Assembly: GCA_030679255.1 (NCBI GenBank)
Contig: JAUXTO010000018.1
Span: 2,973-66,972 of the forward strand
DNA length: 64,000 nucleotides
Origin: Candidatus Gottesmanbacteria bacterium
GTDB lineage: Bacteria; Patescibacteriota; Microgenomatia; UBA10105; UBA927
Direction of reading: 5' to 3'
Shown: piece after piece, positions 1 to 9,700 of the stretch
Position numbering within the stretch: position 1 is the first letter of the stretch
Layout of the letters: each line of letters begins with the position of its first letter
Notes under the pieces: generated by a model
Databases searched by the model: none
The model's input: only the letters and a program-made list of their open reading frames with translations
Told to the model about the DNA's origin: nothing
Made by a program: the position numbers and the translations under genes

Positions 1-776
1 AATTTTCGGTATAGCGGCTGTTTTTTTTCATGCGGACTTGGTATCAATGGCGCTTGGTCTTGTGGCTGAAAAATCGGGAGGGAAAACGAAGCAGGCAGAG
101 GTTCTTCAGGAATAGGTACGGGACGTGATGTGTCTCCGGTTGAGGACAAAGAAGAGTGTTTGGATGTATCAGAGAGATCATCTTTGATTTTATTTGATAT
201 AGGTTGTAAAGATGAAACGGTGTTTATTTTTGAGATATCTCTCTGTAGATCCTGATTCGTGGGTTGGGAAGTTGGTGGTTGATCTATGATTTGAGCATCA
301 GAAGAATCTGACTGTTCAGCATTTTGTATCGTATTCGCATTACTTGAGTCGATAATAGGTTGTTTTATATCTTCTGATATATTTGATTTTGTAATTATTG
401 GAACACGTTGATAGGTGGTGCGTGAGGTCAAAAGATTGGTGATCCGTTCGGCTTCATACCGGCGTTCCCCGCCTGGCGTACGGCTGCTCGAGAGTATTCC
501 CGCAGATTCCCAACGCCGAAGTGTGGAGCGCGATACGCCGGCCAGTTTTGCCGCCTGGCTGATCGTGAGGGGTCCTTGAGTGTTCGCTCCTACCTGCCCG
601 TTTTGGGGACGTATGACGTTGAGCGTTTGTTGTGTTATCACATGGACACCGTTTTCGTCTTTGATGGCGCTGATCATCCCGGATTTTACCCGGCGCTTCA
701 TGGTGCTTTTTGAAATACCGAGGTATTTAGCGGCTTGACTTATAGTAAAAAGTTTATCGTTTGGTATGGATATCAT
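1..776 (-). CDS. MerR/excisionase-type DNA-binding protein with two tandem HTH (HTH_17-like) domains and a Ser/Pro/Gln-rich disordered tail. The C-terminus runs off the window start (partial).
   Basis: Reverse-strand ATG at 776. Translation reads MISIPNDKLFTISQAAKYLGISKSTMKRRVKSGMISAIKDENG..., then a second copy PLTISQAAKLAGVSRSTLRRWESAGILSS...GGERRYEAERI, which is the classic MerR/excisionase HTH signature. There is no stop down to nt 1. The ORF is absent from the track because it is truncated at the window edge. Confidence 0.6.
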   Translation of the reverse strand, partial: MISIPNDKLFTISQAAKYLGISKSTMKRRVKSGMISAIKDENGVHVITQQTLNVIRPQNGQVGANTQGPLTISQAAKLAGVSRSTLRRWESAGILSSSRTPGGERRYEAERITNLLTSRTTYQRVPIITKSNISEDIKQPIIDSSNANTIQNAEQSDSSDAQIIDQPPTSQPTNQDLQRDISKINTVSSLQPISNKIKDDLSDTSKHSSLSSTGDTSRPVPIPEEPLPASFSLPIFQPQDQAPLIPSPHEKKQPLYRK

Positions 777-1242
777 AGGGGGTATTGGGATAGCTGAGGA
801 CGGTTGAGTAAAGCAATACACGCGGGAAAAGAGATTCCCGAAGCGGGTTTATGACTGCGGTTTGCGTATGGTTGCGAAGCAGATGGACCTCTCATGCACT
901 TATTAAGAAAGAGAATCAAGAGGATGTCAAATGAGGGGAATACGGTGTTTTTCGCCGTGGCTATACTATGGGGTAGTTCTCAACACCAGTGAAGGAGCAA
1001 CTATAGGTTAAAATAATATTTTTTCACTGTATCATACTGAATTTACACTGTTTAAACGGCATTATTCATCCACTTTTATTTTGCTTCATTGGTTCCAATT
1101 TTATCGTTTGATTTTTGTCTATTATGAATCATTTATATCTTATAGGAAACATACTACGGCTGTAAAAGGACCTCGGTATTTTGGTTGTCTAAGAAGCGCG
1201 TACCGGCTTAGTATCCGCGATTGGTCTCCCAGCACAAGTATT

Positions 1243-1271
1243 TGACTAATAGGGTGACTTCGGGTAATGTG
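1243..1271 (+). promoter_or_regulatory. Candidate sigma70-like promoter TTGACT-N17-TAATGT immediately upstream of the LysM/M23 gene start.
   Basis: TTGACT at 1243-1248, a 17-nt spacer, then TAATGT at 1266-1271, lying 7 nt before ATG 1279. This would give a leaderless or near-leaderless transcript. Pattern match only. Confidence 0.3.
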
Positions 1272-1278
1272 GTGAGAC

Positions 1279-2358
1279 ATGAGAGAAATCCTGCGCGAGT
1301 TCCGCGATGACGTAGGACTGTGGGTCCACGGCTGGTCACTCTATATTGAAAAGAAACTCCGTCACTTTGGCGTGGGATTTGAGCGGAACAAAGAACTCGT
1401 CGTCGATATCCTCATGGCCCGGCGGGGGAGTTATCAGCGGCCGTTTCTGCATTTCTCGCTCGGCGTGCTCTTCATGGTTGGACTCGTTTCGGCTCCCATC
1501 CTCTCCAACTCCTACCCAGGGACGTATGCCAGTAACCTTGTGGACATCACATCGCCATCGGCGACCGTCATATCTCTCGATGATCCAGCCTCCTATGGCA
1601 TCCAGACCACTCAATCCGAAAAACCGCGGGATCAGGTGATTAGCTATGAGGTCGCATCCGGTGACACACTTTCGATTATCGCGCAAAAATTTGGTGTATC
1701 AATCGATACTATTAAGTGGTCAAATGATCTAAAAAGAGATAGTTTGAGCATAGGACAAGAACTTAAAATTCCCCCAGTCTCCGGCATCGTCCACAAAGTC
1801 AAAGATGGAGAATCCGTTCAAAGTATTGCCAAAAAGTATCGTACCGAATCACAAAAGATCGTTAACTTCCCTTTTAATGATTTTGCCGATCTCGATACGT
1901 TTGCTCTCAACGCGGGCCAGACCCTTATCATACCGGACGGCATCCAGCCGGAAGCCCCGGCGATTGTCCGTCCTTTGCCTCCATCTTTTGCCGGAGGATC
2001 CGGCCAACTCCTTTGGCCGACCAACGGCATCATTACTCAGTATCCGGTCTGGTACCATATGGCCCTGGATATCGCCAACCCCGCCGCACCGGGCATTGCG
2101 GCTGCGGACGCAGGAGTCGTGACGGATGTGCAATATCTCCGGTACGGCTACGGCTACCATGTCATTGTTTCCCACGGCGATGGTCTCTCGACGCTCTACG
2201 CACATATGTCCGAAATTTATGTAAAAGTGGGCGACCGCGTGGCCCGCGGCCAAGTCCTCGGCCGCATGGGTTCGACGGGTCGCTCGACGGGCACGCACCT
2301 TCATTTTGAAGTCCGGAAAAATGGGGTGATTCTCAATCCTCTGTCGTTTTTGAAATAG
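1279..2358 (+). CDS. Membrane-anchored peptidoglycan endopeptidase with two LysM domains and a C-terminal M23 (LytM-type) peptidase.
   Basis: 359-aa ORF in the track. A TM segment (FLHFSLGVLFMVGLVSAPIL) is followed by two LysM repeats (YEVASGDTLSIIAQKFGVSIDTIKWSNDL; HKVKDGESVQSIAKKYRTESQKIVNFPFNDF) and M23 motifs (HMALDIA...; GYHVIVSHGDGLSTLYAHM; GSTGRSTGTHLHFEV). Confidence 0.85.
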   Translation: MREILREFRDDVGLWVHGWSLYIEKKLRHFGVGFERNKELVVDILMARRGSYQRPFLHFSLGVLFMVGLVSAPILSNSYPGTYASNLVDITSPSATVISLDDPASYGIQTTQSEKPRDQVISYEVASGDTLSIIAQKFGVSIDTIKWSNDLKRDSLSIGQELKIPPVSGIVHKVKDGESVQSIAKKYRTESQKIVNFPFNDFADLDTFALNAGQTLIIPDGIQPEAPAIVRPLPPSFAGGSGQLLWPTNGIITQYPVWYHMALDIANPAAPGIAAADAGVVTDVQYLRYGYGYHVIVSHGDGLSTLYAHMSEIYVKVGDRVARGQVLGRMGSTGRSTGTHLHFEVRKNGVILNPLSFLK

Positions 2359-2369
2359 ACATAAGACGC

Positions 2370-2408
2370 ATGGGTCACATGAGTCTCATTTGACCCATGG
2401 GTCTCATG
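2370..2408. repeat. Palindromic CATGAG-W-CTCATG motif cluster 1. It is nested in a larger inverted repeat, ATGGGTCA...TGACCCAT, directly after the LysM/M23 stop.
   Basis: atgggtca CATGAGTCTCAT t tgacccat gggtctcatg. ATGAGTCTCAT is an 11-bp palindrome with an odd central W. Confidence 0.6.
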
Positions 2409-2431
2409 AAGGTACACTATCAGTTATTCGA

Positions 2432-2504
2432 GGGCCTGTGGTATACCGGTAACACATCTCCATGGCATGGAGAAGTAGGGGGTTCGATTCCCCCCAGGTC
2501 CACC
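2432..2504 (+). tRNA. tRNA-Ala (anticodon GGC)-like, with an atypical short D-arm.
   Basis: Acceptor GGGCCTG pairs with CAGGTCC and carries the G3:U70 Ala identity pair. Anticodon stem TCTCC/GGAGA with loop ATGGCAT gives anticodon GGC. T-arm is GGGGG-TTCGATT-CCCCC, discriminator A. The D-region contains a GGTATACC palindrome and does not fold canonically, and no CCA is encoded. It could be a divergent or degenerate copy. Confidence 0.55.
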
Positions 2505-2512
2505 CTGACTTC

Positions 2513-2553
2513 CATGAGACTAATGAGTCTCATGGGCCCCATGAGTCTCATGG
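2513..2553. repeat. Palindromic CATGAG-W-CTCATG motif cluster 2. It overlaps the stop of the four-helix-bundle gene.
   Basis: CATGAGACTAATGAGTCTCATGG at 2513-2535 and CCATGAGTCTCATGG at 2539-2553. Confidence 0.6.
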
Positions 2554-3095
2554 AGCGCTTTGCGGCGAGCAAGGAATAGTTTCTCCCGAAATCCTCCCTC
2601 GCGGACAAAACGGTTTTTGATGCCTGTTAAAAATCGATCCATGAGAAAGCCCTGTTTTATGCAAAGCGTCATCATGAGGTTGGCGAAGCTTTCCTGATCA
2701 TCAAAACGGATTTCATGCCACGCCTGAGCGTCATGAGACACATGAGTCTCATGAATATCGATGAGAATTTTTCGAAGTCGAAACACCCGCGGATCATTTT
2801 TATCCCATACGGGGAACCCTTTTTTGAAAAGAAAATCTTTATAGTCTTCGGTCAGCTCCCCATAGCTTGCCCGCGAGACGCCCGAGAGCTTAAGATTGCT
2901 TTCAACCGAGTTTTCCAGACTCCCTTCGACGAGATTCTGTTTTCCTGAGCGGTTCGCCTGTTCCATTTGATCGAAGGTTCTCGTAGTGCGGGGGATATAG
3001 CGGGTTATGAAGATATGGTTGAGGTGGGAAATTTCCTGGGCAAGCCAGTAGACAAGGGTGTTTTCTATCCCGCCAGTTTTTTGTGAGTTTTCCAT
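2520..3095 (-). CDS. Four-helix-bundle protein (23S rRNA intervening-sequence protein family, PF05635-like).
   Basis: Reverse-strand ORF, 2520..3134 in the track. The likely start is ATG at 3095 (MENSQKTGG...), 4 nt after the tRNA-Ala(CGC) 3' end. The sequence matches the family pattern: LVYWLAQEI...F..RYIP, then QNLVEGS, then SGVSRASYGELTEDY (compare NIAEG...ARGSL.EL.TQ). The C-terminus (IHETHVSHD...LHETHGAHETH) is translated read-through of the palindromic motif, where CATGAGACTCAT reads as HETH. Confidence 0.55.
   Translation of the reverse strand: MENSQKTGGIENTLVYWLAQEISHLNHIFITRYIPRTTRTFDQMEQANRSGKQNLVEGSLENSVESNLKLSGVSRASYGELTEDYKDFLFKKGFPVWDKNDPRVFRLRKILIDIHETHVSHDAQAWHEIRFDDQESFANLMMTLCIKQGFLMDRFLTGIKNRFVREGGFREKLFLARRKALHETHGAHETH
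2732..2767. repeat. Palindromic motif cluster 3. It lies inside the four-helix-bundle CDS.
   Basis: CATGAGACACATGAGTCTCATGAATATCGATGAGAAT. A further half-site, CCATGAGAAAG, sits at ~2638. Confidence 0.5.
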
Positions 3096-3098
3096 GGG

Positions 3099-3171
3099 TG
3101 GACCCGATCGGATTCGAACCGACCACCCCTGCAATGCGAATGCAGTGCTCTACCAAATGAGCTACGGGCCC
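3099..3171 (-). tRNA. tRNA-Ala (anticodon CGC).
   Basis: Reverse complement of 3099-3171 reads GGGCCCGTAGCTCATTTGGTAGAGCACTGCATTCGCATTGCAGGGGTGGTCGGTTCGAATCCGATCGGGTCCA. This is a canonical cloverleaf with G3:U70, D-arm GCTC/GAGC, anticodon loop TTCGCAT, and T-loop TTCGAAT. Confidence 0.85.
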
Positions 3172-3182
3172 GGGAAATACTT

Positions 3183-3223
3183 CATGAGTCTTATGAGACA
3201 CATTACTCTCATGAGCTCCATGT
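3183..3223. repeat. Palindromic motif cluster 4, upstream (on the reverse strand) of tRNA-Ala(CGC).
   Basis: CATGAGTCTTATGAGACACATTACTCTCATGAGCTCCATG. Confidence 0.5.
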
Positions 3224-3244
3224 GTCAAATGGAAAAAGTGGATT

Positions 3245-3463
3245 TTATTTTGAAGTACTCGCTCCCGCCACTTGGGGGGTAGACTGGTTGAGCTGATTAT
3301 TGATAAAGTTCCCCATCATGGCTCCAAGCCCGAGCATCATGGCGAATGCGACCAGGAACATCCAGCTACGTACAACGATGAGATAGTGGGGAGACGTAGC
3401 CCGCGATGTGCGGTGCGCGACGTGATGATGGGTCCGATTTCTGCGGGTAATTTTTTTCTTCAT
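3245..3463 (-). CDS. Hypothetical small basic protein with one TM helix (73 aa), divergent from the giant gene.
   Basis: Internal Met of the track ORF 3245..3628. Translation is MKKKITRRNRTHHHVAHRTSRATSPHYLIVVRSWMFLVAFAMMLGLGAMMGNFINNQLNQSTPQVAGASTSK. Upstream (reverse orientation) are TTGACA-like boxes: ccTTGACAagg and gTGTCAAGG. No homology is recognised, so it may be spurious. Confidence 0.3.
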   Translation of the reverse strand: MKKKITRRNRTHHHVAHRTSRATSPHYLIVVRSWMFLVAFAMMLGLGAMMGNFINNQLNQSTPQVAGASTSK

Positions 3464-3762
3464 ACTCACTCTAGTTTTCTCTCTTTTTTGCTCCTTGTCA
3501 AGGGGGCAAACTCGTCCTTGACACACCCTTTTCGCGCGCGTCATTATGTATATATAATAACTTTTTTCGCTAGCGGTTTTCGTTGGGTTTGAAACAGTTG
3601 GTGAAAAAAGATTGCATGCCCGGATCACTACCCAGGAATTTTTTTCATTTCAAGCATACAAATAAAAAATTAAAATCCCACGCATTTCTCCGTTTACCCA
3701 TCGTTGATGCATTTCTTTCTCTATTGATATCGTTATTGTCTCCCATGAGACACAGGAGACCC
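3464..3762. promoter_or_regulatory. Divergent intergenic control region between the small reverse-strand ORF and the giant gene. It contains an AT-rich tract and TTGACA-like boxes.
   Basis: Direct repeat tcCTTGTCAagg ... CCTTGACAcacc at 3491-3529. AT-rich stretch at 3540-3700. AGGAGA at 3754-3759 is a possible Shine-Dalgarno for ATG 3763 or 3772. Confidence 0.3.
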
Positions 3763-3780
3763 ATGAGTCGCATGAGTCCA
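3743..3780. repeat. Palindromic motif cluster 5, overlapping the giant-gene start codons.
   Basis: CATGAGACACAGGAGACCCATGAGTCGCATGAGTCC. In-frame ATGs at 3745, 3763 and 3772 all lie inside motif copies. Confidence 0.5.
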
Positions 3781-6700
3781 TCGGGTGGCTTCATCCACCT
3801 CCTCCCCCTCATCCTCCTCGCCGTATTCGCCCTCACGACGTTTATCATCGTGGGGAAAGTCGAAAAGGATAAGCAGGATGTCCGGAGCAGGGCCGCCATG
3901 TCCGATGAAGGAGGAGGGGGAGGGGTTAATCTTGACATCACCGATTCGATGCGCGCCACGCAAAACGAAGTTGCCTATGAGGAAAAGCAAGCGTCGGTGC
4001 TTCAGCAAGAACAAGAAGTCGCCTATCAAGAGGTTAAACCCCCGACCGTAAAAGACGATGATCGTCCCACAAGCGGCAACAACACCATCCAGACGACCTC
4101 ATACGACGAAGATCGTGAAGCCGCCCGGGCACGACAACTCACGGAAAATAACGCCAATCAAACGACCACCGGTACTACGACGACCACCCAGACGACCACG
4201 GAAAGAGATGATTGGCGTCCCAATTCAGGAAATACAACGACTAATACGACAGGTGGAAGTGGACAACAACAGGTCGATACGACCACGACAAATACAACGA
4301 CCAATCAAGTAAATAACGCCCCCGTTCCCGATGCAAGCATCACGACTGTCCCCGTCCCGGTTGTCATCACGGACGCACCTAAGCCTACGACCAAAGCTGA
4401 TCAGCTCACTGATTGTTACGACCAGTTTGGTTACAACAGTTCCCGGTGTGATTATTTCAAGCCCACCGTCACACAAGCGCCTTTTACACCAACAGAAATA
4501 GAGACTCCTACGCCAAAACCGAGGTTGTCCCGTTACGACGAGCTTGAAAAATCTGTCACGACGACCCCCCCTCCTGCCAACGTCACGCCAACGTCGGATG
4601 AGCGTATCGCATTGGGTATCACTCCAACGTCAACGCTCCCTCCCCGTATCGTTCCCATTAATCCACCATCAACGACGACTTCCACAGTGCCCACGACGCC
4701 TCCATCCCAGAATGTATCCAATACGAACTCGTCGCTCAATCTCGCCACAACAGCCAAATCCGCTAGTCAAATTAAGAAAGATTATGATGAATGTATTCGG
4801 AGTGATTCTGGTACTGTAGCGGATTGTTACGGTATCGCCTCTGGCAAGACGACCCCCGCGCCGATTGCCTACGTTTCTCCGGCGAATGGGGGATCCACCC
4901 CGCCGATTGCGCAAGGTACGACAGGAAAAAGCGGTACATCGACACAAACTTCCAGAGATAAATTTAAAGACGCGCCGGAGCAAACACCGGATCAAAGCGT
5001 TGGAGGCGATGCATGCGCGAAAGCGCAAGGATGGGATTTGTTTAAATGTAATCTACAGAAACCAGGCACGGCGTTTCAGGCGGCTATTATTTCGTATTTT
5101 AATCAAACGTCCATAGTCGCTCCGACCAAGGCTCCCGGTGTCGTCCCTGCCCTTACTTTTGAACAGATACAGCTGAAGCGACAAGAACTTGCTGACTGTG
5201 ATACTCCGGCATGCCGTGATGACGTGAATAAAAGATTTGGTAGCCTACCTTCGACTGTTCCCACGACGGCAAAACCACCACTAGCATCTGGCAATCAATC
5301 AGTATCAACTGCTGGCGCTCCTCCTACATCAGGTGCTAAGCCCACTGGTCCCGCATCCACGACTACCACCGCTCCGGTCGCAGCGACGACCACAACGACA
5401 ACGAGTTCCACAGGATCGACCTCCACCACCGCCTCTCTCATCCCGAAAGGTTACACCGATCCGGGGGAGGCCGGGGAGAAAGCCTGGGGAGATTGTAAAA
5501 AGTCCGGCAAATCCGATTTGGACTGCCGGGGGGCCGCGGAAAAAGCCCACGCCGTGGCAGAAGCCAATTTGCCGGCAAAAATTCGATTGAGTCAGCAGTG
5601 GCGTCAGGCTAAAGACATCGGCAGGGCGGTCGATGAAGCGAGCAAAACCATGCTTGCCGAGGCCCTCAAAGCCGCCGGGGTCAAGGACAGTAAGGGGCTC
5701 TCCGCCGATGCATCGGCCAACATCCAAGCCATCCAAAAACTTTTAGCTCAACAACTTCAGGGTGATGCGGGAAAAGGTAAAACTGCCGCCGAGCTTATCC
5801 GTATTGGGGTGCTTGCGGGTAAGCTTGCCGGAGCGTCCGCAGGGACTAAATCCTCAGTGGAGATTGCCGCCGAAATCGCATCCGCCGGCCTTTTTACCGC
5901 AAAGGCCGACCCGAAGCTCGTCGTAACGACGACCACAATCACCACGCTCCCGATGTACAAAAATTCCGGCGAAGCCGTCAAATCCAACCAAAAGACGATT
6001 ACCCCGGATCAATGTACCTGGTGCGGGAGTGCGGGCCAAGGCTACTGCAGTAAAGAATGCGGCGGCGACAAATCCTGCGACGCAGGGTTTAAATTGAACG
6101 CCGAAAAAACGAGCTGTGTCGTCGATCCCAATTACAAACCCACCCCGACCCCGGCGGCGACCGAATTGGCATCTTCATCAAAGACCACGACGACTGCTCC
6201 ACTCACCCAGGAGCAATTTGATAATTACACACTCGCTAACCCTCCGACGAAACTGAAGTTTGGTGATGCAGGGTGTTTATGGTGTAACAGTTGCGGCAAG
6301 GGTTTCTGCGCTGCTATCCCTGGCGGTGGTTGCAACGATCAGGCCGCCAACCTCTGTTCAGACTGGACAAAGACCAATGACATAATTCAGGAAAATGTTC
6401 GTCAGTCTCAAAGCACGGTCGCTGTTGCGCTCCCGCAAGCAGCTCAAGATGCGTATCAGGAGGCCATAGCCACCTATAAATCTGATGAAAAAAAGCATGA
6501 AGAAGCGGTTAAAACGTTTATTGCAAATGGTGGATCTCTCGCGCAAATCGTTGCAGCCACCGGCGCCGTCGATGCATTTGACCAATGGAAGACGTATGTG
6601 GACCGCAAAGCACAGGCGACCCAGTGGGATGAACGACGATTGGAAGTGATGGGCGACAAGCTCGATCGTAAAGTAGCCCAGCTCACTTCCCAGCAGCAGG

Positions 6701-9700
6701 CCATGCTCGTCGACCGGCAAAAAGCATTCCTCGTCAATCTTGGCGCTCAAGAAGCGGCCCGTAAAGCAGTGTTTGGCGTCTCATCCGCCGGACCGAACTC
6801 GGACTCAGCTCTTTTTGAGGCAGGCACAAGCAATCTCCCGTCGGATGTCAAAAATGATATCGACAAAGACGTCACGGACAAAACGCCGGTCGTCAAAGAA
6901 GTATTTCAACTTCAAAAAACTATGGAGGATTCGGTGCAAAATCTCCAAAAAGGCCTCGCCGAGTGTGATACCGACGAGTGTCGGACCAAGGCAGCTGCGT
7001 TTTTTCAAAATTCTAAAGCAACGATTCTCAACATTGTCAATGTCGATGCTCCCCGATTGGGCCTGGATGACGGGAGGATTAAAGAGTTCAATACATATTT
7101 GACCAATGGCGAGTATACAGCCAAACTCGCGGTGGATAAGCAAAAGCTTCTCCAGGCCTACACTTCCTGTACACCGAATTGTACAAGTACGGAAGATGTC
7201 GATGGTCGCGTCCTGGTATCCGCGGAACAAAAAGCATTCACTGCACAGTATGGCAAATATGTCACGGATCTTCGCAAGGCCAATGAGGCCAACGTTTTCA
7301 AAGAAGGCTACCAGGCGGGTTTGAACGCACTTGACGTTGATTTTCAGGTCGAAGACAAAAAGCTCGCGATGCGGGATATCCAGCTCAAACTTCCTACCAT
7401 GCCGGATCATGATATTACTCAGTATTGGCAGGATTATAACAAGTTAAAACAAGAGATCGAGCAGACGAGAGGCGTTAAAGAAGCCAATCTCGCCGATGCC
7501 TATGCTCAGACGTCCGGTTGGACGGATGCTGCAGCAAAGGCGTTTATTACCTGTATTGCAACAGGAAAAACATCGTGTGATTCTGATCCGGCTGTAAAAA
7601 CAGCGAGGACGGAAATTGTCCGAAGTAATGGCGAAAATAGTCCTCAAGTCGTCCAACTTGATCGGAAGCTTGTAGAAGTCAAAACCCGTTTTGAAATGAA
7701 CGATCTCTATGCCGCGAGGTTGGAATCCGCAGGCAAGAAAGATAATTATGCATTGGAGGATCAGTATGCCAAAACAATCAGTGAGTTAGTAAGAAACGCA
7801 GATAATTATGATCTCGTCCGCGAGATTCAAAAAGATGAAGGAAAGATAAAGACTGCATTCATAAATACTGCCGTAAGAGACGGAAAAGATTGGGCGCTGG
7901 AGATGGTATGGAGAACCGGTAATCCAGTTATAGAAAAAGATGGCACGAAGAGGGAAGCCACCAAGGCAGAATATGAAGAACAAAAGCAAGCTTTAACGAA
8001 ATTACTCGCTCAGCAGGAGGCCGCCGGAATTCCGGAGCCCGTTCGAAAGTCGTTTGAACAAAAATTCTATAACGGTGAACTGCCGGATCCGAAGAAACTA
8101 CTGGCTGATGGGACTATGCCCGTCACGTATGTACGGGATGGCGCGACAGTTACGCAGGAAGTGAAAGCCAAGCCCACGGACCTAGGCAACGTGCTCCTTA
8201 TTGCTCAGACCTCCGTTCAGAAAAACGATCACTATCAGACCTGGCTCCTCCAATCGGGAAATAAGGAAAAGACTCCGGCAGATTTTGACGCCTACCAAAA
8301 GAAAGCCTTTGAGACCTATCAAAAGGACAAATGGCTCTCAGACTTTTTCCTGACGGATGAGAAAGCGAAATCAGACTACGTGAAGGGGCTTTATACCGGA
8401 GAGAAAAATGCAGACGCCTTTGCCACAGCATGGAAGCAAACATCCTGGAGGGAAGCAGTAACTATTAAAGTTCGTTCTATGGTCGGTCCGGAAATTAACC
8501 ATAAAATGGACGAATTTTATGGACTCCAAAAGGATCTCCCCATCGTGCAAGCTGACTACGTGAGCGCGCAGCGCACGAAGGATGCAGACACGCGTATCGT
8601 TTTGAGTCGTTCAAAAGAGATCGAACAAGATCCAAATTTTGCAGATATACAAAGAGACTATGGATGTACCACCGGCCGCCAGTGTCTGGAAAAACAAATA
8701 GCTCAGATGTGGCTCATGGGGCAGGATGCCAAGTTTGGGAATAACGACAAAACCAAAAAAGTTTTTGCCGACGATCCGGATTGGGCGGTCAACGGCGTGA
8801 TAACCGGAAAATTGCAGGTGGGCGATGTCCAGAATCTGGTGAATCAGTATAACAAGGAGCGGGACGAAACAGTGATTAATCCTGTCGTGAAGTATGTTGA
8901 TACGGTTTTGGGTTTTGCAAGCAACATTCCATTATTAGGCGAGCTTGCCAAGCTCGAGAGAAAGCTCGTGGAAGGCACAGTCACCCAAGCCTATCGTCCG
9001 GCAGACGAAAAGCTCGCTTTGGGATTGGCAGAATTGTACGTCAAAAGCGTTGGCGGTACGCTGGAAGACAATGACAAGCTCAAAGATGACGAAATAAAGA
9101 AAAGAATCGTCAATGTCGCGGCCCAGATTGCCCTGGGCACGTCGCTTGATAACCTCAAAAGCGGTATTGATGCGCAAGATAACCTGTCCCTGGTCAAGAA
9201 AATGGAAATACACGGCAAAAATTCCATCCAGGCAGCGTATAAATTGGAAACGAACGCCGTAGCGCAAAAGGAATATATAGAAAAGCTGGACTGGGGGGAG
9301 AAAAACGCGCTGGATTTCGTCAACTGGACACACGGCTCAGCCGTCCGTGGTCATGTGACGACCGAGCAAGGGAAAGAGCGGCTGATAAGAGGCAGTGCAA
9401 CCGGTAACAATATTGAGTATTTTGCTGGCCTTGGTGACATGGCCCGGGGCACCGTTATGTCCGGCGGTAAACTGTATGGCACACTTCTGGCATTTACTGT
9501 ACCGGCAGCGGGACTTGTGGGGGGGACTACAGCTATCACCGGTCAAGGGTTACTCAACGCAGTGGGCACCGGCATGGGTCAGTATCTGGCCGGCGAAAGC
9601 TGGGCAGGGACAGCCGAGGCATGTTCGTTTAAATCCTCGATGGATGGGGCAGCCTGCGGCAGGTCTGCCCTCATGACGGCATTTATGACGATCTCCGCGG

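Follow-up and report, generated by a model that had tools for sequence, protein, structure and literature searches.

Tandem 9-bp repeat arrays accompany a four-helix-bundle gene located between two tRNA-Ala genes in a Candidatus Gottesmanbacteria genome

The locus and its repeat arrays

We analyzed a 64,000-nt stretch of a Candidatus Gottesmanbacteria contig (JAUXTO010000018.1, positions 2,973 to 66,972, assembly GCA_030679255.1), hereafter the window, in which a short repeat is clustered around two tRNA-Ala genes and a small open reading frame (ORF) placed between them. This ORF is predicted to encode a protein of the four-helix-bundle-suffix (4HBs) family and its start codon directly follows the 3' end of the tRNA-Ala(cgc) gene. 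The coordinates of the features are given in Table 1. Loci of other genomes are designated by L numbers.

The preliminary description of this DNA had read the repeat as an odd-centred palindrome, CATGAG-W-CTCATG, and copies or near-copies were confirmed at each of the positions listed for it. With up to two mismatches allowed, 16 near-copies were counted in the 64-kb window, 14 of them inside 2360-3774, against 1.38 expected from shuffles, and 0 of 100 shuffles attained 16. The exact 13-mer CATGAGWCTCATG is present twice, at 2540 and 2741. On both strands, the 7-mer ATGAGWC has 31 matches in 64 kb, 16 of which fall in 2360-3785 (binomial p = 8e-19). Beyond this stretch the window consists of a giant ORF, in which no clustering of the motif is visible, so the claim that it is clustered, and not a compositional quirk, stands for the window.

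The element is a tandem repeat with a 9-bp unit, CATGAGWCN, as given by TRF (period 9) and by reading of the register, and its copies form five arrays, A to E, within 2360-3779. Since the unit consists of CATG plus AG-W-CT, a run of units approximates its own reverse complement and appears as an odd-centred palindrome. The sites are indeed dyad-symmetric and non-random, as first described, but the true unit is the 9-bp tandem repeat. A nested inverted repeat reported at 2370-2398 is real, and strong hairpins are formed, in comparison with shuffles, by arrays A (z = -5.0), B (z = -5.5) and C (z = -3.0). Hairpin formation was rejected as a property of all the arrays because D and E do not fold. 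The attribution of the HETH tail of the four-helix-bundle ORF to the motif was also correct: array B encodes ...HETHGAHETH at the C-terminus, and the internal HETHVSH peptide has the same origin. An independent Logan assembly is identical across 12,358 nt of this region, so the repeats are no assembly artefact. In an Rfam search of window positions 1-5000 only the two tRNAs passed, and the arrays gave only chance-level matches at E <= 1.

Table 1. Features of the locus (window coordinates; HTH, helix-turn-helix)
Feature	Position	Strand	Basis or remark
MerR/excisionase-type double-HTH gene	776->1	-	ORF + Pfam
LysM-M23 peptidase	1279-2358		ORF + Pfam
Array A	2360-2413		6 CATGAGWCN-like units between LysM-M23 stop and tRNA-Ala(ggc); hairpin
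tRNA-Ala(GGC)	2432-2504	+	ARAGORN, Rfam
Array B	2513-2557		5 units at 3' end of 4HBs ORF; two hairpins; contains stop codon
4HBs gene (191 aa)	2520-3095	-	TIGR04258
Segment inverted in L262	2574-3095		blastn, feature maps
Array C	2732-2758		Inside 4HBs ORF; translated HETHVSH, helix 3-helix 4 loop
tRNA-Ala(CGC)	3097-3171	-	ARAGORN, Rfam
Array D	3183-3227		5 units upstream of tRNA-Ala(cgc); mostly direct repeats
Small membrane-protein ORF (75 aa)	3245-3472	-	Kept in orthologues; context only
AT-rich promoter region, divergent	Between small membrane ORF and giant ORF
Giant ORF	3616-64000	+	In-frame ATG 3616 orthologous to L120 start; later ATG 3745
Array E	3744-3779	+	4 direct in-frame units MRHRRPMSRMSP, 5' end of giant ORF

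Association of the arrays with the 4HBs gene

The arrays accompany the 4HBs gene family and co-vary with it. Two sets of loci were compared. The gene-first set comprises 80 metagenome loci retrieved only by similarity to the 4HBs protein, and counts over it ignore kinship among the loci. The pattern-first set comprises at least 118 loci found by searching GTDB genomes for three units in a row, with hits from many phyla; the six-frame ORF context of these arrays was too noisy in high-GC genomes and was left unused.

Period-9 repeats account for 159 of the 366 TRF rows in the gene-first loci, and 58 of the 80 loci have at least one period-9 array. Relative to the start of the protein match, these repeats peak at -200..0, +300..+400 and +500..+700, and their density is 1.43/kb near the gene compared with 0.16/kb farther out. 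Repeats of period 7 and period 8 show no peak at the gene and are located far from it. From the opposite direction, a 4HBs homologue overlaps the array or lies within 50 bp of it in 7 of 118 pattern-first loci, with arrays placed upstream, downstream and within the gene. The internal arrays of relatives in other phyla occupy the same alignment position as array C of the window, and the same three array positions recur from the candidate phyla radiation (CPR) to Planctomycetota and Bacteroidota. The gene that constantly goes with the repeat is the four-helix-bundle gene, regarded as a bystander in the preliminary description. Proximity to tRNA genes was rejected as a general rule and is confined to the lineage of the window: a nearby tRNA was found in only 2 of the 80 gene-first loci (L120 and L186).

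The 9-mer itself varies by lineage (CATGAGTCT, TATAGGTCC, TTATAAAAA, AATTTGACT, TATAACAGT, CTTAAGTWA and others). Its commonest form is TATAGGTCC/TATAAGACC, and the CPR clade of the window uses CATGAGWCN. Internal arrays use the same 9-mer as the flanking arrays of their own locus, with 488 common 8-mers against 171 expected from the flanks of other loci (0 of 5000 permutations). Units that are self-complementary, in the sense that the reverse complement equals a rotation with one mismatch allowed, make up 22% of those near the genes, compared with 3.6% of random and 8% of composition-shuffled units.

Constraint on the internal array

At its synonymous sites the internal array shows constraint at the nucleotide level. 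It encodes [Y/H/N]-x-[S/T] tripeptides, which the AlphaFold2 (AF2) model places in a loop of lower confidence that joins helices 3 and 4. The x residue is highly variable (R, K, E, L, A, M, T, V and others) and its codon ends in G in 88% of 173 triplets, as opposed to 27% elsewhere in the same genes; likewise, the Y/H/N codon ends in T in 91%, as opposed to 51%. The same third-position bias is found in 17 loci without flanking arrays. Since the bias persists where there are no flanking copies, gene conversion from neighbouring arrays is not the whole explanation. In addition, a 7-bp dyad formed by the first and second units is preserved in 86% of cells; sliding the partner columns gives 24-47%. 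Changes on both sides of the dyad number 25 against 13 in shuffles, figures of a kind that relatedness inflates.

In the internal arrays of L120-L199 the repeated codons are nearly always NAT (Tyr, His, Asn) and occur at every third codon. NAT codons are U-ending and are decoded by queuosine-modified tRNAs.

The 4HBs protein

The 191-aa ORF matches NCBIfam TIGR04258 with 42.4 bits (cut-off 40, E = 4.7e-11). No match to PF05635 (23S_rRNA_IVP) was obtained for the window protein at E <= 0.01, and 40 of 60 close relatives do match this family (best E = 2.7e-6). The AF2 model (pLDDT 88.3) is a four-helix bundle. Its top Foldseek matches in the PDB are 2gsc (Xcc0516) and 2rld (BT_0352), with probabilities of 0.97-1.0 and TM scores to the target of 0.58-0.74, followed by 8ub7_B and 4dwl (Avd); the E-values of these Foldseek matches are weak. 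A sequence-profile search of the PDB with the 4HBs protein gave no significant match, the link to 2gsc, 2rld and Avd being made by fold comparison only. On these profile and model matches the protein can be assigned to the group that unites the four-helix-bundle-suffix proteins with the 23S rRNA intervening-sequence (IVS) protein/Avd fold. The subfamily contains about 3,300 clusters at 50% identity. Among relatives, the polar face of helix 2 (R39, T40, Q43, Q46, R49, S50, K52, Q53, N54, E57) is strongly conserved, and so is a GGxRE turn.

Avd, the only relative known to be characterised, is a nucleic-acid-binding scaffold. The 4HBs protein is probably an oligomer. Judging by a title cited in PMC10053308, Xcc0516 (2gsc) is an assembly of five four-helix bundles. 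Proteins related to 4HBs are encoded in rRNA intervening sequences (10.1101/2024.02.27.582315), and 23S_rRNA_IVP genes have earlier been noted in cas loci (PMC3936711). No rRNA was found by Rfam in window positions 1-5000, the 4HBs gene being located between two tRNA-Ala genes. In the literature that we searched, PF05635/TIGR04258 proteins are called functionally uncharacterised and are placed in cas loci, in diversity-generating retroelements (DGRs) and in CPR rRNA insertions.

Inversion and turnover among orthologous loci

Six Gottesmanbacteria-like loci are orthologous (the window, L120, L262, L267, L269 and L270). All carry the LysM-M23 gene, both tRNA-Ala genes and the 4HBs gene, and the small ORF and the giant gene were called in most of them. 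All six also have arrays A, C and D. Three other arrays vary in presence: B, at the junction of the gene with tRNA-ggc; B', at its junction with tRNA-cgc; and E, at the start of the giant gene. Array B is missing from L120 and L267. Array E is weak in L262, and L267, L269 and L270 have none; the stretch of about 37 in-frame codons in which it lies has no counterpart in the giant protein of L120. Where the set of arrays is fullest, the elements run A-tRNA-B-[gene]-B'-tRNA-D, which bears out the earlier observation that the motif brackets both tRNA-Ala genes.

In L262 (GCA_016218205.1), window positions 2574-3095 align by blastn to 3052-2531 on the opposite strand, whereas the flanks, window 1323-2534 and 3093-3921, are collinear and the orientation of the tRNAs is unchanged. 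Both inversion breakpoints fall at array positions, array B being the left one. In either orientation the 4HBs ORF is directed away from a tRNA-Ala gene able to drive its transcription. A different rearrangement is seen in L080 (1800-2900), where a direct duplication of about 100 bp that includes two arrays and a unique spacer flanks the 4HBs gene, as though insertion of the cassette had duplicated a target that carried arrays. The arrays are sites of inversion and of indel turnover. Of the suggestion that the motif represents recombination or integration sites tied to tRNAs, the first part agrees with the inversion of the ORF at array breakpoints; tRNA-linked integration is not supported by the count of nearby tRNAs given above (2 of 80 loci).

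The two arrays that precede the tRNA genes contain a variant unit, CATTTGACM (2390-2418, plus strand; 3190-3230, minus strand), which places a TTGAC box, a 17-nt gap and a -10-like hexamer before each tRNA-Ala gene. The variant of array A, CATTTGACC, gives a -35-like TTGACC (2390) followed by TACACT 17 nt on, and array D reads TTGACA-17-TAATGT on the minus strand. This arrangement is kept in L120 and L262. A promoter scan found such sites no commoner than in shuffles, and the overlap of A and D with -35 boxes is indicated only by that conservation. Arrays A and D probably overlap the promoters of the tRNA-Ala genes, and their occupancy could influence how the tRNAs and the 4HBs gene are transcribed.

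Copies in other genes and composite elements

Arrays were also found away from the 4HBs gene. In Prevotellaceae/Bacteroidales (L007, 3526-3579; L067, 4967-5056) the repeats are located in Era and in peptidyl-tRNA hydrolase (Pth). In Era of Prevotellaceae an in-frame repeat supplies about 27 residues where the reference Era has about 6, between two conserved blocks, and in Pth the repeat forms a C-terminal tail. Metagenome-assembled genomes (MAGs) of Prevotellaceae also carry the repeat in linker regions of large proteins, and several lipoprotein genes and an ORF of >2254 aa have it at their 5' ends. In L101 (1129-2231) the signal peptide of a lipoprotein is wholly encoded by an array, MRKMRRMRLMGLMGLIGLMGLMGC. 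Several array loci per MAG were found in Prevotellaceae CALDLA01 and Lentisphaeria JBAZOO01, both of them MAGs found by the pattern itself. The possibility that solo arrays are scars of decayed 4HBs genes was rejected, as tblastn returned array-encoded peptides only and no gene fragments.

The Lentisphaeria MAG JBAZOO01 (L004, L024, L044, L055, L106) contains at least 5 copies of a composite element of about 100 bp, with the order GC hairpin, ACTTCCGCCACCGT, (CATGRGTCC)n, CCATGGGACCAATGACCGATCCCAAGGGCCGCCCTT; here the array is part of a larger dispersed repeat. In Chloroflexota (L032, L040, L084, L111), inverted runs of 9-mers, GTCTCATGYGTCTC ... GAGACRCATGAGAC, surround a conserved loop of about 20 nt and are followed by GGAYCSATAAGGG. 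This element looks like a structured hairpin family made from the same 9-mer unit.

Comparison with known systems

By their defining features, none of the known systems that we compared (REP/RAYT, RPE, DGR, IVS and CRISPR) fits the arrays and their gene. Repetitive extragenic palindromic (REP) sequences, their REPIN forms and the REP-associated tyrosine transposase (RAYT) gene resemble the 4HBs system in having a single-copy gene flanked by cognate short repeats that co-vary with the gene lineage, and repeats that are, at least partly, self-complementary. They also have dispersed copies elsewhere in the genome, for which the signal here comes from a few MAGs and from weakly enriched distant flanks. 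RAYT is a Y1 transposase and the gene studied here encodes a four-helix bundle without an HUH/Y1 motif; the repeats are head-to-tail 9-mers instead of imperfect palindromes of 20-40 nt; and one array lies within the gene and is translated, with in-frame copies tolerated in other ORFs. This last trait recalls the Rickettsia palindromic elements (RPEs), which Ogata and colleagues reportedly described in 2000 as selfish DNA inserted in frame into protein genes. As in that case, the repeat DNA has no stops in most frames and is found in loops or termini of housekeeping proteins (Era, Pth). RPEs are single elements of 100-150 bp without a gene, whereas here a 9-bp unit of variable copy number has a dedicated gene family.

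The 23S rRNA IVS elements share the protein superfamily (PF05635), a small promoter-less ORF inside a stable-RNA unit and self-complementary borders. They differ in that the 4HBs gene is not in an rRNA gene and its borders are tandem 9-mers. The DGRs are similar in the Avd-like four-helix fold (4dwl, 8ub7) and in that a repeat in or near the accessory gene matches target genes, often large surface-protein genes; in contrast, the units here are 9-bp tandem repeats and not a template/variable repeat (TR/VR) pair of about 100 bp, and differences specific to adenines, for which no search was made, were not seen. No reverse transcriptase was found in the window ORFs near the gene, nor among the 25 commonest neighbour families (49 loci). 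The invertible segments of fim, hin and the shufflons are also gene-sized, bounded by inverted repeats and found in both orientations in related genomes, and here a promoter-bearing gene, the tRNA, faces the segment from each side. Unlike those systems, no invertase or recombinase gene is nearby, and only 1 of 6 orthologues is inverted, so that the inversion may be an evolutionary event and not a switch.

The short tandemly repeated repetitive (STRR) sequences of cyanobacteria, reportedly heptamers in the account of Mazel and colleagues of 1990, are likewise short tandem units that are intergenic, dispersed and lineage-specific, with no function known for either family; here period 9 alone peaks at the gene. 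Finally, clustered regularly interspaced short palindromic repeats (CRISPR) are 24-48 nt long and separated by unique spacers, unlike the contiguous 9-mers, and cas genes adjoin some relatives of the 4HBs gene, not the gene of the window.

Interpretation of the arrays

We consider, with a probability of roughly 0.55, that the arrays of the window are the local version of a family of 9-bp arrays that accompany 4HBs genes throughout the bacteria, are bound by the 4HBs protein and are recombination-active. That the 4HBs protein may recognise the arrays is what we infer from their co-variation with the gene, from the analogy with REP/RAYT and from the nucleic-acid binding of Avd. In this family one array is found inside the gene and is translated as a tolerant surface loop, and further arrays mark the borders of the gene. 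Copies also reach nearby or distant sites, such as the 5' end of the giant gene in the window. Self-complementary units would provide dyad-symmetric binding sites as well as substrates for inversion, insertion and deletion, and the gene with its repeats would persist as a semi-selfish cassette relying on host transcription, in this locus that of a tRNA-Ala gene, in either orientation. The logic would be that of REP sequences with their RAYT gene, with different parts.

Several observations weigh against this proposal. Flanking arrays are not universal, being found upstream in 34 of 74 loci and downstream in 21 of 76. Only 22% of the units are fully self-complementary, and arrays D and E fold no better than shuffles (z = -1.05 and -0.36). 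Cognate arrays more than 800 bp from the gene are weakly enriched (66 vs 35, p ~0.015). A reversed control 9-mer pattern, GTACNCWGAGTACNCWGAGTAC, has 56 matches in viral contigs as opposed to 6 for the motif; raw counts of tandem 9-mers therefore prove nothing, and the at least 118 pattern-first hits were not used as enrichment. Some pattern-first loci (e.g. Streptomyces) may be unrelated coding repeats. The co-variation of arrays about 350 bp apart could be explained by gene conversion alone. Moreover, we know of no binding, cleavage or recombination activity for the 4HBs family.

The main rival, which we regard as rather improbable, is an element acting at the RNA level. Hairpins in the transcript, or pairing between upstream and downstream arrays, would direct processing (an RNase III-type excision, as in the 23S IVS), stabilise the promoter-less 4HBs message excised from tRNA, cas or giant-gene transcripts, or control its translation. 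In its favour are the folding of arrays A, B and C, which greatly exceeds that of shuffles, the upkeep of the internal dyad, in part by compensatory change, the constraint on synonymous sites, which suits an mRNA element as well as a DNA site, and the fact that rRNA intervening sequences encode relatives of the protein (10.1101/2024.02.27.582315). The 4HBs gene is also directly downstream of a tRNA in both orientations, and 74% of the ORFs adjoining 4HBs genes are co-oriented with them. However, arrays D and E are direct repeats without a fold signal, the self-complementary units amount to the 22% already mentioned, and no Rfam family was matched. If the arrays were processing sites, the in-frame copies in Era and other genes would be cleaved, and an inversion with array breakpoints is an event at the DNA level. 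The arrays may be bound as DNA, in an operator-like or recombination-related role, or as RNA, in processing or translational control.

We give equally little credence to the arrays being a passive repeat, that is, a slippage-prone coding tripeptide repeat copied by duplication or gene conversion, with neutral flanking arrays and with the inversion as a one-off homologous event between inverted repeats. Tandem 9-mers are generally common, as the control pattern shows, about half of the loci have no flanking arrays, arrays are gained and lost among close relatives, and the distant cognate signal is weak. Against this, third-position G and T are kept in the 17 loci without flanking copies and across lineages with differing units. 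Solo arrays come without gene fragments, and arrays abut start and stop codons instead of lying about 330 bp in, as they would in decayed copies of the gene. The recurrence of the same three positions from CPR to Planctomycetota and Bacteroidota also speaks against a passive origin.

The preliminary description had named the divergently encoded MerR/excisionase-type HTH protein (1-776, minus strand) as a candidate binder, with the arrays as its operators. The dyad symmetry of the sites, the overlap of arrays A and D with -35-like boxes of the tRNA promoters, and an HTH-transmembrane (TM) protein that is encoded nearby in the window and in L262, and in L263 as a fusion with a large surface protein, would agree with this idea, which we nevertheless find very improbable. 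Homologues of the HTH protein were found only in these two other CPR array loci, and no HTH-domain homologue was detected in the other 80 gene-first and 118 pattern-first array loci. In L267-L269, Rho stands beside LysM-M23 in place of the HTH gene, and arrays A, C and D are kept nonetheless. A MerR operator would be expected in the promoter of its regulator gene or next to that gene; the region upstream of the HTH gene (777-1278) has no array and only two degenerate matches. The protein is also predicted to be membrane-anchored with a long collagen-like tail.

Least probable of all is that the arrays are attachment sites of a mobile element that targets tRNAs; they do bracket two tRNA-Ala genes, a tRNA lies within 200 bp of the array in pattern-first loci L036, L046 and L052, and L083 has the order tRNA-Asp -> 4HBs -> array with tRNA-Asp about 685 bp away, but L120 and L186 are the only gene-first loci with a nearby tRNA, no integrase was found among the ORFs and Pfam matches of 1-8244 and no integrase-bearing island bounded by arrays was seen, the motif is unrelated to tRNA sequence and includes no copy of a tRNA 3' end, and the same arrays are located in cas operons and inside ORFs.

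The proposal of a 4HBs-bound array family can be extended beyond this locus, in a more tentative form that we think may well be wrong. IVS/Avd-like 4HBs proteins would be sequence-specific binders of lineage-specific 9-nt arrays, forming a widespread selfish repeat-gene system. Its master site would be inside the coding sequence of the gene itself, and its copies would seed the borders, invert or relocate the cassette and enter other genes in frame, signal peptides and the 5' ends of genes for giant surface proteins among them. If true, a family with crystal structures dating back to 2006 and no known role outside DGRs would gain its first function. The partnership of repeat and gene appears to be undescribed: no account of the arrays was found in the searchable literature, which leaves most subscription journals outside, and an earlier mention, for example in the curation text of a family, is possible.

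A cognate motif that co-varies with the gene provides a handle on the movement of these small genes, PF05635/TIGR04258 proteins occurring in rRNA intervening sequences, cas operons, DGRs and defence islands. The arrays also account for odd low-complexity peptides such as HETHETH, MSPMSP and GLMGLM at termini, in housekeeping loops and in signal peptides of Prevotella, the Planctomycetes-Verrucomicrobia-Chlamydiae (PVC) group and CPR. They would have a bearing on the annotation of start codons, including that of the giant gene in the window, and may be behind assembly breaks near 4HBs genes.

Neighbouring genes and minor observations

Among 85 ORFs neighbouring 4HBs genes, the commonest encode Cas7 (11), Cas1 (6), Cas4 (3), subunits of type I restriction-modification (R-M) systems and helicases. 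In L143, L148 and L153 (about 2000-4200), type I cas operons have a 4HBs gene, of one clade of the family, inserted between cas7 and cas4. Other 4HBs genes are located in R-M loci, beside helicases or beside giant genes. In CPR genomes other than the Gottesmanbacteria-like ones the 4HBs gene is placed between giant surface-protein genes, the upstream one having arrays in its 3' end and the downstream one in its 5' end; in L263 and L265 it directly adjoins giant Laminin_G_3 surface-protein genes. Two of the 85 adjoining ORFs encode IS200-type Y1 transposases, the enzyme family of RAYT. These neighbours may point to the enzyme responsible for moving the arrays; a regular-expression search for the two Y1-transposase neighbours gave no match.

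The stretches of GTACNCWGAGTACNCWGAGTAC in viral contigs (L206-L261), often present several times per contig, are probably a coding tripeptide repeat of phage structural proteins.

The HTH protein of the window continues in the adjoining sequence L001 (1-1228) and has a TM helix followed by several hundred residues of collagen-like G-X-Y repeats. From its sequence it is predicted to be membrane-anchored with an extracellular collagen tail. Its relative in L263, of 1670 aa, is fused to a Peptidase_S74 domain.

The giant ORF that hosts array E is still open at the end of the window, and the called length of its L262 orthologue is 20,250 aa. Another 9-bp repeat, TCATCCACC, is located at 3791-3819, in the signal/TM region of the giant ORF.

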